Positions 7,180 to 37,838 of a DNA stretch of 64,000 nucleotides are shown piece after piece (positions within the stretch are counted from its first letter, which is position 1; each line of letters opens with the position of its first letter). This DNA is from Tricharina praecox (taxonomy: Eukaryota): NCBI RefSeq assembly GCF_024521635.1, contig NW_026250430.1, positions 1 to 64,000 of the forward strand, in the 5' to 3' direction. A program made the translations under genes and the position numbers. The notes under the pieces were generated by a model, which did not search any database, was not told where the DNA came from, and saw only the letters and a list, made by a program, of their open reading frames with translations.

Positions 7180-7315
7180 AAACCCCGCGTGGTCTGGTGG
7201 TTTAGACCATGCAATCGGCGAGGGGATTTTAGTAAAGCTCTGGGTTCTAACCCGGGTGAAAGCCCTGTCTGCTCTTGGGCTTTCCAAGCCACCCACCGTG
7301 GGTGGTGAAGGTTTT
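7180..7315 (+). ncRNA. Family A structured Pol III-like RNA / tRNA-derived repeat, copy A1
   Basis: A-box-like TGGTCTGGTGG, B-box-like GGTTCTAACCC, 3' hairpin CCACCC/GGGTGG and TTTT. Aligns with four other copies. Confidence 0.6.
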
Positions 7316-8551
7316 CGGTTCGAGCCACGGTTGGGTTTTATTTTTTATATCCTAAAGACGTATAACTTGGTTACTACCTGCAAGCTATGCCTGGAGGTTT
7401 GCTTCCTTTCCTGTGAGTTACGGGCAAATATTTTTCCTCCATCAGGGATTTGATCGATGGATTAGAGTGTCAAACCCGCGCTCATAAGCTGGTGAATAAC
7501 GAAGTAGATTAACAAGATATTATGCTTCAGTACAGCAATAGTATCGTGAGTAGCGAGCCCACTCCATATAAATGTTCCAGCGCACAAGGCAGATTGTCCC
7601 ATCTTTAGACGGGCCGGTCCACCATACAACAGACCAGCCGGCTGGAGCTAGCCCGGAAGCTGAGTGCTGGCTTGCAGGCAGGAGGCAGGAGGGACAGGAG
7701 ATGTGTTGTTGTTGCTGTTGCCTTTTCTGTTGCGGTGGCCCGGTACACGGCCCGAGGAGTAATGCTCACTACTCACCGTCCTTTCGCTCTCCGTACCATG
7801 GTGAACTCAATCCGTGTGATTGTGGTTGTGTTGCCAGATGATAGAGTCGCACGATCGCATCACTCGCGGTCCGAGTGCTGCTGAGAGCGGTTATGTATCA
7901 TACATACGCCATTGCTCGTCAAGCGCAAGACAGGAGAGAACAGAACAGCTGGAAATACGGAAATAAACACTAGGTTCGTAGCCGCACCTATGGGGTCCAT
8001 GATCCAATGGAAGAATTTGGTAGGTAGTAGGTGGCAAGCTTGAAGGGATCAACGCGAGAATCCACCAGTGGCATATGATTGCTTAGTTCGGGACCTGCTC
8101 AGTGCTGGTGGACCTGTGTGGACCTATGTAGACCACATCCTTCATCCAAGCAATTCGCGAAGACCGCTTCGATCAGGATAGGTATCGGATATCCCGCAAT
8201 TTCGGCTAGGCAGGTTGACTTACCTGCCGTCGAGAGGCCTATGCCGCCAGCCAGCCTTCGAGGTGATTGGACCACAGAGAACATGAAAGAGATAGGGCAG
8301 TGAATACTATGTTGGATTTGCCGCAGATGGCGTCTCCTCCGCTACTTCTATCCGCGGATACCATTCTGGTGTTGCTATGGATAGCTCGCAGGCGTCGCTG
8401 TGGATATTGCGCTTTCCTTGTGGTGGTTCTCGCGCTGTCTTTGTCGTTCGTCCAACGCAGACAGCGTTGTGGCGGGCCGCGGAGCGTGTCCGTTGCGAGT
8501 GCACCAAGAACTTACTTTATGAGGTTCGAATTCTTGTCTCTAGCACGGAAA

Positions 8552-8689
8552 AAACCCCGTGTAGTCTAGTGGTCTAAGACATGCAATCGGTGAGGGGATT
8601 TGAGGGAAAGTCCTCGGTTCAAAACCAGGTGAATGCCTTGTCAGCTCTTTGGGTTTCTAAGCCACCCACCGGGGGTGGTGATAGTTTTT
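8552..8689 (+). ncRNA. Family A structured Pol III-like RNA / tRNA-derived repeat, copy A2
   Basis: TAGTCTAGTGG, GGTTCAAAACC, 3' hairpin and T-run. Shared upstream flank from ~8511 and downstream flank to ~8755. Confidence 0.6.
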
Positions 8690-10172
8690 GTTTTTGTTTT
8701 CGGCGTTGAGCACTAGTGAGATATCACTCTGTGTCATCACGTGGCACGCCTTTAGCTACCGGCTGTGGAGGCGAGAATACAGCCATGAGAGAGAACACCA
8801 ATTTACCGTCGCATGCAGCCTGTTCTGGATGGGAGCTTCTTTCTGTCGCGCGATTACACTACACCGGCTGGCTGATAGCGGTATCCGATGCGATGGCCGG
8901 TCGATTCCTGAGACCGCCATGTAAAGGATTTTCGGGAACCTCCTCGAAAGCCAAGAACCGAGTGATTGGAGCATGACGTCAATAGGGTCTCCGAGTGATA
9001 ACACGCAGCGAGTCACGTTGCATGTACTTAGCGAGTGAGTGAGAATGACGTCCGTACAGAGGAGGAAACTGTAAAATCCCTTTGTTGCCCACTCTCTCTG
9101 TAGCGGAAGATCAACCAGCGATGCCTCGTCGATCTACCGGAGGTTCAATCTGATGTTGCACTGCGCCCAGTCGATCTACACGGACCAGGTAATCACGCGC
9201 GATGGCCAGTGGCTCCACGGCGTCATCGATCACGACGAGATGAAAGCGGTCGACAACCAGGCTCCAGATACAGCGGTGAAATCTCTGCTGGCTGCTATGT
9301 GAGGTAGTCGGCAGCTGACCACCGACGATGGGCAAACCGTCTACCGCCGAAGTAGCGGCGGGATTCGGGGGTGCGCGGATGACCAGTGCTGGTGGAGCTC
9401 TCGATGGCAGCTGTAGCAAGACGCTGTAGTTTCGGCGTATGGACGCATGGGAAATATCGTAGTCCGCTTCCGCCTAGCCGCAATGCTAGGAATTGCAGGT
9501 TCGCTCTGCACTGGAGTCACCAACTACCGGTGGCCACCGACCGCTGTGATCCGCTCTGGATTGCCGCAGTTGCGTCCGATCGGCAGCGTCCCAGCGCTAT
9601 TCTGTCTCGCCGTCGCTACTAAGCTCGACTGTGTCGGAGTATCTGAGCGGCGAGAGCGATCAGAATTCTCGGTTTTCGCCCATACATGCGTTGGAGACGT
9701 TGTCCGTGACCGGTATGCTTGGTACCGCACTGGGGAACTCACGGTAGAGTCGATTTTGATGGGCTAATGCGTAGCTGCCGGGTATGCGATGTGGCGTCCC
9801 ATTGTGATTATGCTATCAGCTGCCTGTGCTGCCAACACGGAGCGGCGTCAGCCCGGACCAGTGTTCGCACCCCAGGAGGGCTCGGTGGTGTCTGAGTCAG
9901 CACATTTGATCCGAAGAGGCCGTGAGAGGACGAGTGGAGATCTCACTGAGTCACTTGCTGCGGGAATGCTTTACGGGTCTAGATCATCGCTTGAGTGTAT
10001 TCACTCAGTAAACTCCTGGGGATGCCATTCGCATACCATATTATCGCCCTTACAGAGTGGATTGCTGGTGATCTTGGTAGAAGATGTAAACTCCTCCGTC
10101 GATTTGAATAGGTCGGCATATCGCCAAAAGTAGGGGTGCGTCGTCGTTGAGCCGCACCACAAACACCAGCGA

Positions 10173-10306
10173 CACACTCACACTCACACTCACACTCACA
10201 CTCACACTCACACTCACACTCACACTCACACTCACACTCACACTCACACTCACACTCACACTCACACTCACACTCACACTCACACCCACACTCACACCCA
10301 CACTCA
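10173..10306. repeat. (CACACT)n hexanucleotide microsatellite
   Basis: About 22 near-perfect units visible directly, ~140 bp upstream of the ATG at 10443. Confidence 0.97.
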
Positions 10307-35949: not shown

Positions 35950-36400
35950 GGATGAAGAGGAGAAAGTGATGGAGGAACTATCAGGGAAAGGAGGAGTTGC
36001 AGCGATGGTAACTGTAAGAGATAGTAGTATCAGCAAGAGAATCTATCCGGGAATGTAGGAGCTGCAGCAGGAGTAGTAGCTATATGAGAGGTGAGATATC
36101 AGCGAAAGTATCAGTAGTTGCGGTGGGAGTAGCAGTTGCGGCAAGAGTAGCAGTTGCGGAGGGAGTAGCAGTTGTGGAGGGAGTAGCAGTTGCGGCGGGT
36201 GGAGGAAGTGGAGGAAGTGATGCAGAAGCTGTCACCGAGAGGTGAAAGTGATGGGGGAGCTGCGGGCGAGAGAAGGAGCTGTCAGCGAGGCGATGAAGTG
36301 ATGGAGGACCTATCTGGGACTGGACGGAAGCTTACCAGGCCTGGTGATTGGGGAGCTGTGGCGAGAGGAGGAGCTGTTAGAAAGATGAAGAGGACGAGCC
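35950..36400. repeat. Degenerate purine-rich tandem repeats including an 18-bp GAGTAGCAGTTGCGG unit
   Basis: Four to five 18-bp units at ~36110-36198. AAGTGATGGAGGA(A/C)CTATC recurs at ~35964 and ~36296. Confidence 0.6.
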
Positions 36401-37274
36401 GTGGGCTCGAGAGTTTTAAACTGCAAAAATCATATCTGTCTTCAGCAAAGTCTGCGCGCGTCTAAAAATACGTGAGGACATTATCTGGCGGGTTTGATTG
36501 AAGCCGATGAATTCTTGTGGGAAAGAGGGGGAGCTGTCGGAGCTGTCTCTCTCTCTCTCTCTCTCTCTCTATCACATCATCATCTACGGAATAGACGAAC
36601 AACCCCCCCCCCCCCCATCTCCACTCTCTCCTCTGCAGTGAATGCTAGAGCTTTTGTCGGCCCCCGCACTCAGTGCAGCGTGCGTTGGGCACAACATCTC
36701 CTGCTCGGAGTGCCAGTGCCAGTGCCAGACAACACAAGGCGGATATAAGAATTTCCGTGTCACGCAGTCTGATTTTCGCATATGAGCTACTAACTCATAA
36801 GAGTGATAGAGCCCATAGTTCGAATAAGGGCTCATTGAAAACTTACATCATAATGGGTTTTCTGTCCTGGGCTGATACATCCCATCATGCTTCACAAAAC
36901 CTGCCAGGTTCACAGTCATTATTGTACGGCAGTGCTGTGCATTTCAACAATGACGATATGGGCCTGACGAAAGCTATGAGGCTTACAAAGTTACAAGGCC
37001 AATTTAGGTGATGGTGGTTATTGCTGCATATGCATTATGTAGGAGTTACGACAATTTTAGGGAAATGAGATCATCAGCCTTAGTTTAACACAGCCCTTAC
37101 GGAGGCCTCACGAGCTCAACGGGCTTATAGCTGGCTAATACGAGGACTGTTTGCCTATTCAAGCCCTACATAAGGCTAACGACATTAGTACACGGCTCAA
37201 TATGGTAGGTACTGTCTTTCGGAACTGTATCGCGGGGTCGAGGGGTCGGGAATGAGGGCGGTGTTTCATTGTTG

Positions 37275-37699
37275 TGTCATGGCGGAAAATGGAAATCCTG
37301 TCTGCAATATGCAAGACTGGCTCCTCTCCACAGGGTGACCTGGCGCAGCGGTGGTGCAACCGTGGCAAGGCGATGGGGACTGTGATCTTGCGGATGTCAC
37401 TTCGTCGTTGTGTTGTTATATTCCATCGCGGGGACACTCCCCACTTTATGAGCATGCATCGAGCTTTCCATATGTGAAGGCGACTATATGCGGCGGTGCA
37501 CATGGCGGAAAATTGAAATCCAGTCTGCAAGACAGGTTCCTCTCCACAGTGTGATGTGGTGCAGCGGTGGGGCAGCGGTTGCAAGGCGATGGGGATCTGA
37601 TCTGGCGGACGTCACTTCATCGTTGTGTTGTTATTATTGTCGATCGCGGTGGGCACGCACTACTTCATGAGGTTCGAATTCATGTATCCAGCACGGAAA
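37275..37699 (+). repeat. Tandem duplication (~220 bp) of the module upstream of family A
   Basis: CATGGCGGAAAAT..TCTGCAA..CCTCTCCACAG..TGG(C/T)GCAGCGGTGG..CACTTC.TCGTTGTGTTGTTAT occurs twice here and again at 33035-33200. Confidence 0.85.
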
Positions 37700-37838
37700 A
37701 AACCCCGCGTGGTCTCGTGGTTTAGACCATGCAATCGGCGAGGGGAGTTGAGGGAATTTCCCTGGTTCAAACCCGGGTGAAAGCCCTTTCAGCTCTTGGG
37801 GTTTCCAAGCCACCCACCGGGGGGTGGTCAAGGTTTTT
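37700..37838 (+). ncRNA. Family A copy A5
   Basis: Closely similar to A4, with all stems and the T-run present. Confidence 0.65.

Follow-up and report, generated by a model that had tools for sequence, protein, structure and literature searches.

Repeated units with Pol III-type promoter boxes on contig NW_026250430.1 of Tricharina praecox raise the question of whether they are genes for a small RNA, mobile elements or relics of tRNA genes. Beyond tRNAs, 5S, U6, SRP RNA and the RNase P/MRP RNAs, the list of Pol III products known from filamentous fungi is short. We analyzed the first 64,000 nucleotides of the contig (the window) and refer to the repeated units as Family A.

Copies of Family A in the window and in metagenomes

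A sequence-only reading had located five + strand copies in the window, and these were recovered where it had placed them. Self-BLAST of the window pairs the copies (A1-A5) with one another at 74-87% identity, and their cores are 72-90% identical (10/10 pairs). An nhmmer profile, run over the 64 kb on both strands, matched exactly A1-A5 with E-values from 1e-39 to 4e-53; it revealed no sixth window copy and nothing further below E 0.5. A 20-nt word from the core occurs 3 times in the window versus 0.01 expected from shuffles. The features are given below, with box mismatches counted against the published A and B box consensus sequences, TRGYnnARBGG and GGTTCRAnYCY (excerpted text of PMC10137851), and with base pairs counted out of the 43 in the predicted fold.

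7144..7150, + strand: TATA-like heptamer of A1 (ATTATAA), 36 nt before AAACCCC, an offset shared with A2, A3 and A5
7176..7320, + strand: A1 core (predicted transcript); A box 1 and B box 1 mismatch; 39/43 pairs, central stem weakened; fold z -2.56
about 7341-7352, + strand: T4AT6 of A1, downstream of a first T-run of only T4
8516..8522, + strand: TATA-like heptamer of A2 (TTTATGA)
8548..8693, + strand: A2 core; A box 0 and B box 1 mismatch; 37/43 pairs; fold z -0.03
32074..32080, + strand: TATA-like heptamer of A3 (TTTATGA)
32106..32233, + strand: A3 core; A box 2 and B box 0 mismatches; 33/43 pairs, 3' hairpin broken; fold z -0.71
33042..33442, + strand: longer duplicated unit around A4, 81% over 408 columns to 37535-37929
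33168..33174, + strand: TATA-like heptamer of A4 (TTTATGA)
33201..33346, + strand: A4 core, the best copy; A and B boxes 0 mismatches; 43/43 pairs; fold z -3.61; followed by T4, T5 and T5 runs
37535..37929, + strand: longer duplicated unit around A5, partner of 33042-33442
37664..37670, + strand: TATA-like heptamer of A5 (TTCATGA); most other copies on metagenome contigs have TTTATGA or TTTATAA here
37696..37843, + strand: A5 core; A box 1 private mismatch, B box 0; 42/43 pairs; fold z -2.37

The copies differ in their state of preservation. A2 is a decaying copy, with a fold no better than that of shuffles, and A3, which has lost 5 nt in the A-box hairpin and about 11-13 nt in the centre and whose fold likewise does not surpass that of shuffles, is likely a pseudogene. 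Judged by sequence, A4 and A5 look intact, and so perhaps does A1. The private A-box mismatch of A5 is at place 37716, where the consensus A accounts for 456.5 of 472.3 of the depth summed over 33 metagenome contigs, a measure that pools every organism present and does not give the number of copies. The visible decay of A2 and A3 would suit a family of functionless relics, in which an old tRNA pseudogene sits in a segmentally duplicating Pol III cluster and the copies resemble one another through recent duplication and gene conversion rather than through selection on an RNA. Decayed copies beside intact ones would equally suit a tRNA-derived SINE, whose few Pol III-transcribed masters with good flanks give RNA that is recopied by a LINE reverse transcriptase, the fold being kept for stability and for recognition by that enzyme. 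We consider the SINE unlikely and the relics somewhat less likely still.

Family A extends beyond the window. A sixth copy (L001) lies on a metagenome contig in unrelated flanks. Its core is 77-80% identical to the other copies with flanks at baseline, it retains the TATA-like motif, both boxes, the predicted fold and the T-runs, and it too looks intact by these features. The source of L001 may be the same organism or a very close one, in which case L001 would be a further paralogue rather than a sign of deep conservation. Contig pieces matching at a likeness of at least 80% were found in three soil-metagenome runs (182 in X1, 100 in X2 and 12 in X3), with one core site covered by at least 33 distinct contigs in X1 and at least 32 in X2. 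Family A is far larger than five copies, with dozens more in soil-metagenome contigs, and its description as a five-copy family holds for the window but not overall, given at least 33 further distinct copies. Such a number of distinct contigs speaks against relics. Dozens of diverged copies would be in keeping with a SINE, and dozens of copies also with a larger mobile DNA, such as a solo LTR or a MITE, in which the tRNA-like motifs are incidental, an account that we regard as highly improbable.

Over the metagenome copies, conservation is highest in the 5' strand that includes the A box and in a non-promoter 3' block (...GGGGTTTCCAAGCCACCC), and lower in the B-box region. That a best-kept block lies outside the promoter is a further point against relics. 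At the promoter, T makes up 95.2 of 143.1 of the summed depth at place 37666 (11 contigs) and A 72.4 of 143.1 at place 37669 (10 contigs), which gives TTTATGA or TTTATAA. Upstream loose contig ends at 37673, 37674 and 37677 agree mutually at 0.69-0.82 and contain CTTTATAA, indicating that the flank is conserved rather than random. A conserved upstream flank in many other copies argues against a SINE.

Polymerase III signals and relation to tRNA genes

Both internal boxes are within 0-2 mismatches of the consensus in 6/6 copies (A1-A5 and L001), and the strict paired A and B pattern matches only tRNA-Gly, tRNA-Ala and A4 on the two strands of the 64-kb window (128 kb). The A box, damaged in A3 by the 5-nt deletion, the B box and the terminal T-run were all as first described. 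The end of the A box is 42-44 nt from the start of the B box, or 32 nt in the deleted copy A3. Upstream, the TATA-like heptamer is 36-37 nt before AAACCCC in 5/5 window copies, with a matching offset in L001. This fixed-offset motif spans three unrelated flank contexts (6/6 copies), which would be unexpected for random insertions of a SINE, and A1 retains it although its remaining flank is at baseline similarity. Every copy is then followed by T4-T5 runs, usually two or three, in clusters that resemble those after all four tRNA genes of the window. Among these genes, tRNA-Gly has a TATATA starting 34 nt upstream and tRNA-Ala a weaker AATAAA-type stretch about 24 nt upstream, and no upstream TATA-like stretch was found for tRNA-Met and the intron-bearing tRNA. 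Family A thus shares an upstream TATA and downstream T-runs with tRNA genes of its own neighborhood. By its sequence, it has the features of a Pol III type-2 gene with an upstream TATA, which is a class and not a homology family. The full set of Pol III signals at correct spacing is unlikely to have arisen by accident, which argues against a mobile DNA that merely contains tRNA-like motifs.

ARAGORN called 3 tRNA genes in the window and Rfam 4 at the gathering score. At the Family A copies, ARAGORN called no tRNA and Rfam matched no family at the gathering score, in line with the initial description of a gene-like unit in several copies, with Pol III type-2 boxes and T-run terminators, that is not a tRNA; the Rfam comparison proposed with that description returned no family at any copy. 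The Rfam tRNA model RF00005 did not match the A4 region even at E<=10, and the only match there at that level, to Qrr RNA, is ascribed to chance (18.2 bits versus a threshold of 50). No model of vault RNA, Y RNA or other Rfam Pol III RNAs matched in the window at gathering score or in the A4 region at E<=10. Among 8.1 M papers and 0.36 M preprints searched in full text, none contained any of three core strings.

The 5' part of Family A nevertheless appears from its sequence to be clearly of tRNA ancestry, with D-arm-like and T-arm-like pieces. As in tRNA genes, the A box falls in a D-arm-like hairpin and the B box in a T-arm-like hairpin, and a 7-bp acceptor-like stem has its 3' strand abutting the next helix. 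Unlike a tRNA, Family A lacks an anticodon arm and has an 11-bp D-like stem, a branched central arm and an additional 3' hairpin. Family A resembles vault, adenovirus VA and Y RNAs in length class, in the 5'/3' closing stem and in the U tail, and vault and VA RNAs also in the internal type-2 promoter, but it has no sequence likeness to any of them. The vault/VA-like layout proposed earlier therefore reduces to a generic likeness, namely a closing stem with internal boxes, as no Rfam model of such RNAs matched.

Rodent 4.5SI genes and BC1 are transcribed by Pol III from type-2 internal A/B boxes with a required TATA-like box at -31/-24; there are three 4.5SI genes 4-40 kb apart, and hundreds of 4.5SH genes in tandem repeats (excerpted text of PMC10137851). 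Compared with this account, Family A would similarly give a tRNA-related small RNA of about 100-150 nt from internal boxes and a TATA-like box, and its several copies are, like the 4.5SI genes, a few to tens of kb apart. It differs in having no sequence relation to these rodent RNAs, in belonging to another kingdom, in its apparently dozens of copies and in a predicted fold with a closing stem and a 3' hairpin. In the Neurospora milR-4 precursor (PMC3547838) and the Yarrowia tRNA-5S dicistrons (PMC2566860), as their excerpted descriptions have it, a tRNA promoter drives a downstream RNA. Family A would likewise be a tRNA-type Pol III unit with a downstream hairpin segment that RNase Z could release, but the tRNA part is real in the systems so described and degenerate in Family A.

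Predicted fold

RNAalifold recovers the helices that had been named by eye. The central fold, however, is ambiguous, since in A5 the T-arm-like pairing and the GGGT-GAAA-GCCC hairpin need the same GGG and are incompatible. In the predicted helices, 92.5% of 252 cells pair, compared with 32-50% when the partners are slid by 1-3 columns, a control that favors structure because the structure was derived from the same sequences. Double changes are seen in 4/43 pairs over 6 sequences (5/500 shuffles reach that) and the covariation score is 0.150 versus 0.113 (1/500 shuffles reach 0.150), on the understanding that related sequences can outscore shuffles even without structure. Pair 81-92 in the small hairpin is GC in 4 sequences and AU in 2, so the AGGT/GCCT change of A2, read at first as compensatory, is a real double change. 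The closing stem H1 is mismatched in three sequences (A1, A2 and L001) and shows no compensatory change. Covariation support for the fold, with four double-change pairs in 6 full sequences, is modest to weak. Weak covariation is what relics would show; against them, A4, A5 and L001 (fold z -2.7) hold 39-43 of the 43 pairs together with full promoter and terminator sets.

From this anatomy we infer transcription, the RNA ends, the fold in vivo and any function. TFIIIC would recognize both internal boxes, A and B, and TFIIIB/TBP would occupy the TATA-like heptamer about 30 nt upstream of the start. Transcription by Pol III would begin within the purine run that lies a few bases 5' of AAACCCC and would terminate among the clustered T4-T5 runs, giving a predicted RNA of about 145 nt. 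This RNA would be closed by the 7-bp acceptor-like stem. Its long hairpin would be formed from the former D arm with the A box, and its central arm, stacked on the closing stem, would bear the old T arm, the B box and the small GAAA-type hairpin. A conserved, presumably single-stranded CCAAG linker would follow, then the 3' hairpin and the U tail.

Spread of the copies and candidate product

The five window copies lie among four tRNA genes. They are confined to 31 kb and share a single orientation, which points to local duplication and away from a SINE. The A4 and A5 cores are 90% identical, with 75-77% upstream and 58% downstream, and the match between the longer units around them indicates that gene and flanks were copied as DNA. 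A2-A5 have the -50 to -8 stretch in common at 66-87%, and their duplication took along 45-160 nt of DNA on the upstream side and at most about 100 nt on the downstream side, a further point against a SINE. The core of A1 is 76-88% identical to the other copies and its flank about 55%, the baseline for unrelated sequence. Shared flanks, which had been proposed for all copies, are thus found in A2-A5, and A1 shares only the core and the TATA-like motif. The proposal of DNA-level duplication rather than retroposition is sustained, in that the copies spread mainly with their flanks.

Self-BLAST also found other local duplications, of 32638-33023 with 38716-39203 and of 37278-37452 with 37501-37671. 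A second tRNA-derived family, Family B, has four copies in the same cluster and shows the same pattern of local duplication as Family A. Relics would fit a region that is such a mosaic, Family B included. The repeat unit of about 400 bp common to A4 and A5, and a short G-rich motif common to upstream and downstream flanks, would fit a larger mobile DNA; however, similarity peaks on the 150-nt core and drops on both sides at copy-specific points, and neither terminal inverted repeats nor target-site duplications were seen.

What A1 and L001 have in common with the other copies, besides the TATA-like motif, is essentially confined to a stretch that starts about 8-13 nt ahead of AAACCCC and ends at the T-run. 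A pattern in which little beyond the predicted transcript is common would also fit a retroposed copy, and to that extent a SINE. Relics account for it less readily, since cores kept within baseline flanks need selection or very precise conversion. Conservation of the core above the flanks could, nonetheless, be explained by gene conversion, or by promoter constraint on the A/B boxes, and not by RNA function.

In fungi, tRNA-derived SINEs have been recorded with lengths of 140-493 bp and copy numbers of about 10-160 (excerpted text of PMC5063351), and this precedent adds to the case for a SINE, as does the tRNA-derived head with an internal A/B promoter, which is a standard SINE head. Against the ranges in that text, Family A is of comparable size (AfuSINE2, 140-493 bp) and number (tens to about 160). 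MgSINE, Foxy and AfuSINE2, which have ascomycete hosts, are described there as having target-site duplications, a body unrelated to tRNA, and tails that are A/T-rich or made of simple repeats; 6/6 Family A copies have none of these and are set apart by those descriptions. The longest flank repeats, 4-6 nt, were reached by 80-300 of 300 shuffles, and neither target-site duplications nor an A-rich or simple-repeat tail was found at 6/6 copies. ARAGORN, Rfam and the flank-repeat shuffles thus agree with the earlier observation of no anticodon arm, A-tail or target-site duplications. In contrast to the SINEs so described, Family A ends directly in Pol III terminators with no LINE-like 3' body, and retains the TATA-bearing upstream flank. 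No reverse-transcriptase ORF was found in 90 of 153 stop-to-stop frames of at least 110 aa scanned against Pfam. With regard to SINE2 elements, Family A has the tRNA-derived head with an internal promoter; it does not show target-site duplications (6/6) or start-site copies with unrelated 5' flanks. The SINE head that the sequence-only reading had offered as an alternative is therefore weakened by the fixed TATA-like offset and by the absence of target-site duplications and of A-rich or simple-repeat tails at these copies, and retains a minor share of probability.

On balance, we favor the interpretation that Family A is an undescribed Pol III gene family for a tRNA-derived small RNA, no longer a tRNA, that has spread mainly at the DNA level in a Pol III gene cluster. 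Its sequence signals, fixed geometry, conservation pattern and copy multiplicity are seen directly in the DNA. The case for a small RNA is based on the complete promoter and terminator set, the conserved non-promoter block and the predicted fold kept in copies with unrelated flanks. The family would have grown mainly by duplication of gene and promoter within the cluster, leaving a mix of intact-looking copies (A4, A5, L001 and perhaps A1) and the decaying A2 and A3. By analogy with 4.5SI and BC1, the product would most likely be a stable La- or protein-bound small RNA with a lineage-specific function, and the acceptor-like stem suggests possible trimming by RNase P and RNase Z.

A more specific idea, which we put forward tentatively and with some doubt, is a functional lineage-specific small RNA of filamentous fungi that mimics a tRNA, with a branched arm replacing the anticodon arm, made from dozens of promoter-bearing copies. 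In the gene, the acceptor-like stem would be followed by a conserved CCA-containing linker and the 3' hairpin. Such an RNA might be the RNA component of an unknown RNP, in the manner of vault, Y or 4.5S RNAs. Alternatively, it might be a precursor from which RNase P and RNase Z release one tRNA-like piece and one hairpin small RNA.

This analysis goes beyond the sequence-only reading in the fixed-offset TATA-like element (6/6 copies), L001 in an unrelated context, the dozens of metagenome copies and the tRNA ancestry of the 5' part. If Family A is only a SINE or pseudogene family, its value is for annotation: such units should be masked or labeled, and are markers of Pol III gene clusters. If the tRNA mimic is true, Family A and Family B would form a set of tRNA-derived Pol III genes undescribed in fungi. 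If the gene family is real, it would be a non-mammalian case of tRNA-derived repeats becoming genes, or of genes becoming SINE masters, and its multicopy tRNA-derived RNA would be a new fungal small RNA to seek in RNA data.

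Copies of Family A and their Pol III signals

Self-BLAST and a profile search of the window placed five forward-strand copies of Family A, a unit of about 145 nt, where the sequence-only reading had put them. The copies share 74-87% identity pairwise over 144-252 columns in the self-BLAST. Across both strands of the 64 kb, the profile recovered exactly these five (E 1e-39 to 4e-53), with no other match below E 0.5.

Family A cores: position and strand, TATA-like heptamer, mismatches to the A-box and B-box consensus, pairs kept in the predicted fold and fold z-score. L001 is a sixth copy, on a metagenome contig.
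7176-7320, +, A1: ATTATAA; A box 1, B box 1; 39/43; z -2.6
8548-8693, +, A2: TTTATGA; A box 0, B box 1; 37/43; z -0.03
32106-32233, +, A3: TTTATGA; A box 2, B box 0; 33/43; z -0.7
33201-33346, +, A4: TTTATGA; A box 0, B box 0; 43/43; z -3.6
37696-37843, +, A5: TTCATGA; A box 1, B box 0; 42/43; z -2.4
968-1119 of its contig, L001: TTTATGA; A box 0, B box 1; 39/43; z -2.7

The claim that these are not tRNAs held. ARAGORN called three tRNAs in the window, none at a Family A copy, and Rfam at gathering score returned four tRNAs, with no match at any of the copies.

tRNA genes of the window.
14164: tRNA-Gly
45296: tRNA-Ala
46000-46104, -: intron-bearing tRNA (Rfam 56 bits; missed by ARAGORN as run)
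52095: tRNA-Met

With permissive settings, Rfam gave a single chance match in the A4 region, to Qrr (18.2 bits, threshold 50), and the tRNA model was silent there even at E<=10. Family A therefore matches no Rfam 15 family, over the whole window at gathering score and in the A4 region at E<=10. For want of an Rfam match, 5S rRNA, SRP RNA, U6, RNase P/MRP, vault and Y RNA were dropped as identities. A long-intron tRNA was rejected because the anticodon stem cannot be drawn and the tRNA model does not respond in the A4 region, and a coding exon because the copies differ by 1-nt indels and the overlapping frame (6916-7344, minus strand) has no Pfam match. Family A is of tRNA ancestry: it has D-arm-like and T-arm-like pieces and an acceptor-like stem, and the anticodon arm is gone. 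Its A-box region may resemble that of Glu-type tRNAs.

The A box, B box and terminal T-run described for each copy were all found. Scored against the consensus sequences quoted in PMC10137851 (TRGYnnARBGG and GGTTCRAnYCY), each box carries 0-2 mismatches, and one to three T4-T5 runs lie 3' of each copy. The distance from the A box end to the B box start is 42-44 nt, or 32 nt in A3, a deleted copy. A strict paired A+B pattern matched three times on the two strands of the window, at tRNA-Gly, tRNA-Ala and A4. All five window copies also carry a TATA-like heptamer 36-37 nt 5' of AAACCCC, the 5' strand of the closing stem. Among the window tRNA genes, tRNA-Gly has TATATA beginning 34 nt upstream and tRNA-Ala a weaker AATAAA-type stretch about 24 nt upstream; tRNA-Met and the intron-bearing tRNA have no upstream TATA-type motif, and T4-T8 runs follow all four. 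From this promoter and terminator geometry, transcription is predicted to start in the purine run just 5' of AAACCCC and to yield an RNA of about 145 nt. 3' of the A4 T-cluster comes an inverted repeat, GGCAAGGCG ... CGCCTTGCC, and then a second T7 run (33350-33440); the same arrangement, less clear, lies 3' of the A5 T-cluster (37850-37925). These repeats might act as a backup terminator or extend the transcript by read-through.

Spread of the copies and further members

Shared flanks had been proposed for the whole family. They hold for A2-A5, which have in common at least 45 nt of 5' flank and as much as about 100 nt of 3' flank, and fail for A1. In segment-by-segment alignment, core identity is 72-90% in all ten pairs. 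The stretch from -50 to -8 is 66-87% identical among A2-A5, whereas A1 matches the others at about 55%, the level of unrelated DNA in the same alignment. A4 and A5 share a 400 bp unit (33042-33442 with 37535-37929). As claimed, target-site duplications and poly-A tails are lacking: the direct repeats flanking all six copies are 4-6 nt long, a length reached by 80-300 of 300 shuffles, and none of the copies has an A-rich or simple-repeat tail. A1-A5 all point the same way within a 31 kb stretch that also contains tRNA genes and other local duplications. Together, the shared flanks, the absence of target-site duplications and tails, and the one-orientation clustering favor duplication of gene and promoter as DNA, as the earlier reading had it. 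If Family A were instead a true SINE, which we consider unlikely, retroposition would fit the finding that A1 and L001 have little in common with the other copies beyond the predicted transcript, but would leave the fixed TATA-like motif in both of them unaccounted for.

Local duplications make a mosaic of the A4-A5 region. The far-upstream flank of A5 occurs as two tandem copies of 81% identity (37278-37452 and 37501-37671), the first with no gene after it, and 32638-33023, upstream of A4, matches 38716-39203, downstream of A5. That Family A is part of a larger mobile DNA strikes us as very improbable.

A 20-base pattern taken from the conserved 3' block picked out two loci in a scan of metagenome contigs. 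One of them, L001, is a true relative. It aligns over its core alone, at 77-80% identity to A5, A1, A2 and A4 in whole-core alignments and at 92% to A3 over 51 nt only, and no part of the window matches its flanks. It keeps TTTATGA at the matching offset, a perfect A box, T-runs and most of the fold. Since it may stem from the same organism or a close relative, we count L001 as a copy in an independent context and not as proof of deep conservation. The second locus was rejected as a chance match, on a bacterial-looking contig with the nhmmer match confined to the pattern. Two viral-contig matches were also due to chance, the pattern alone matching, with no others among viral contigs, and prokaryote genome contigs gave no match.

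The public sequencing runs listed for 31900-38100 are three soil-metagenome DNA runs of one study (X1-X3), with no RNA run among them. Contigs aligned on 37500-38000 at 80% likeness or more gave 182, 100 and 12 pieces in the three runs. Summed contig depth in X1, which is not a copy number, is 216-895 over 37670-37839 against 5.7-7.5 in the outermost bins. At 37716, at least 33 distinct contigs in X1 and at least 32 in X2 carry the consensus A, which shows that the A5 A-box mismatch is private and that Family A has dozens of members. Contigs reaching the promoter have T at 37666 (11 contigs) and A at 37669 (10), giving TTTATGA or TTTATAA. The loose contig ends just 5' of the promoter contain CTTTATAA and agree with one another at 0.69-0.82; many copies thus have a conserved upstream flank, not the random DNA of an insertion site. 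A second, A1-like type of 3' flank is common to seven contigs in X1 and four in X2.

Predicted fold and its conservation

RNAalifold, run on A1-A5 and L001, recovered the helices that had been drawn by eye. The predicted structure has a closing stem of 7 bp, an 11 bp hairpin over the A box and a central stem of 9 bp adjoining the 3' strand of the closing stem, as well as three further hairpins: a short one at the B box, one of GAAA type and a 3' one of 7 bp. In the hand-set fold 92.5% of 252 cells are paired; sliding the partners by 1-3 columns lowers this to 32-50%, a control biased in favor of the fold as the structure was derived from the same six sequences. Double changes occur in 4 of 43 pairs (5 cells); 5 of 500 shuffles had as many, and the covariation score of 0.150 against 0.113 was reached by 1 of 500. 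In L001 the A-box hairpin has a pair changed from UA to CG and the central stem one from GC to AU; a further double change is in a 2-bp helix, and in the small hairpin the GC to AU change noted earlier in A2 recurs in L001. The closing stem has three mismatched cells in the six sequences, with no compensation. A modeled alternative for the center, with a full 5-bp T arm, scores slightly worse but is nearly as good (90.6% paired and three double-change pairs, versus 92.5% and four), so that either central fold may apply; the T arm and the small hairpin are mutually incompatible in A5.

The best-conserved stretch, by invariant alignment columns, is the non-promoter 3' block from the central stem through GGGGTTTCCAAGCCACCC, and soil contig depth peaks within it (37789-37822). 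That a non-promoter block is best kept hints at constraint on the RNA itself. We think it quite unlikely that the copies are functionless relics kept alike by conversion.

Genomic setting and relation to known RNAs

From its sequence, the window is rich in predicted Pol III genes. Besides the tRNAs and Family A, it holds a second tRNA-derived multicopy family, Family B.

Family B copies.
25735-26009, +
34075-34347, -
38371-38620, -
44015-44201, +

The Family B copies are 72-92% alike, with conservation extending to about 100 nt of the upstream flank and to a downstream hairpin. At 25852-25955 the Rfam tRNA model reaches 27.8 bits against a threshold of 29, with 48 nt in place of the 17-nt anticodon arm. 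Two of them sit on the strand opposite to A4 and A5, 0.7-0.9 kb downstream of these. Other repeats in the window are a 41-nt tandem repeat at 26273-26687 (palindromic unit GGTCGGGATATATCCCGACC followed by an A-run; at least three adjacent units and a further copy), a long (CACACT)n microsatellite at 10137-10334, and short local tandem or dispersed duplications of about 70-88% identity at 47079-47711, 48898-49367, 50565-51069 and 51390-51633, in a gene-poor stretch around tRNA genes. A Pfam scan of 90 of the 153 stop-to-stop frames of at least 110 aa found tyrosinase, pectate lyase, P450, chromo-shadow and thioesterase domains. The P450 piece groups with Ascomycota clusters (Atlas), and the thioesterase ORF (20721-21608, minus strand) has, besides its own entry, two relatives among 5.8 billion proteins, at 36% and 32% identity. 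The source therefore looks to be a filamentous ascomycete from a lineage that has been little sampled.

Three Family A core strings do not occur in the text of the papers searched, and a literature search on fungal SINEs and fungal Pol III RNAs yielded the known fungal SINEs. These are described in PMC5063351 as having target-site duplications, longer bodies and tails; by that description Family A, which lacks target-site duplications and tails, stands apart from them. Rodent 4.5SI and BC1 RNAs are characterized in PMC10137851 as tRNA- or SINE-derived, with A and B boxes, a TATA-like box and several gene copies. Family A, known here from sequence, is likewise tRNA-derived and multicopy, with A and B boxes and a TATA-like motif. 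Compared with Rfam and with fungal SINEs by description, it would belong with tRNA-derived Pol III small-RNA or SINE-like families.

On balance we lean towards reading Family A as a set of Pol III genes that encode a small RNA of tRNA origin. Some members would be intact and others decaying, and the set would have been amplified as DNA within a Pol III cluster. After the acceptor-like stem come a CCAAG linker, which is conserved, and a hairpin; by analogy with Neurospora milR-4, presented in PMC3547838 as an example of the RNase P/RNase Z processing route, the transcript might be cleaved by these enzymes into two pieces. By analogy with rodent 4.5SI and BC1, the predicted product of the Family A genes would be expected to be a stable small RNP RNA.
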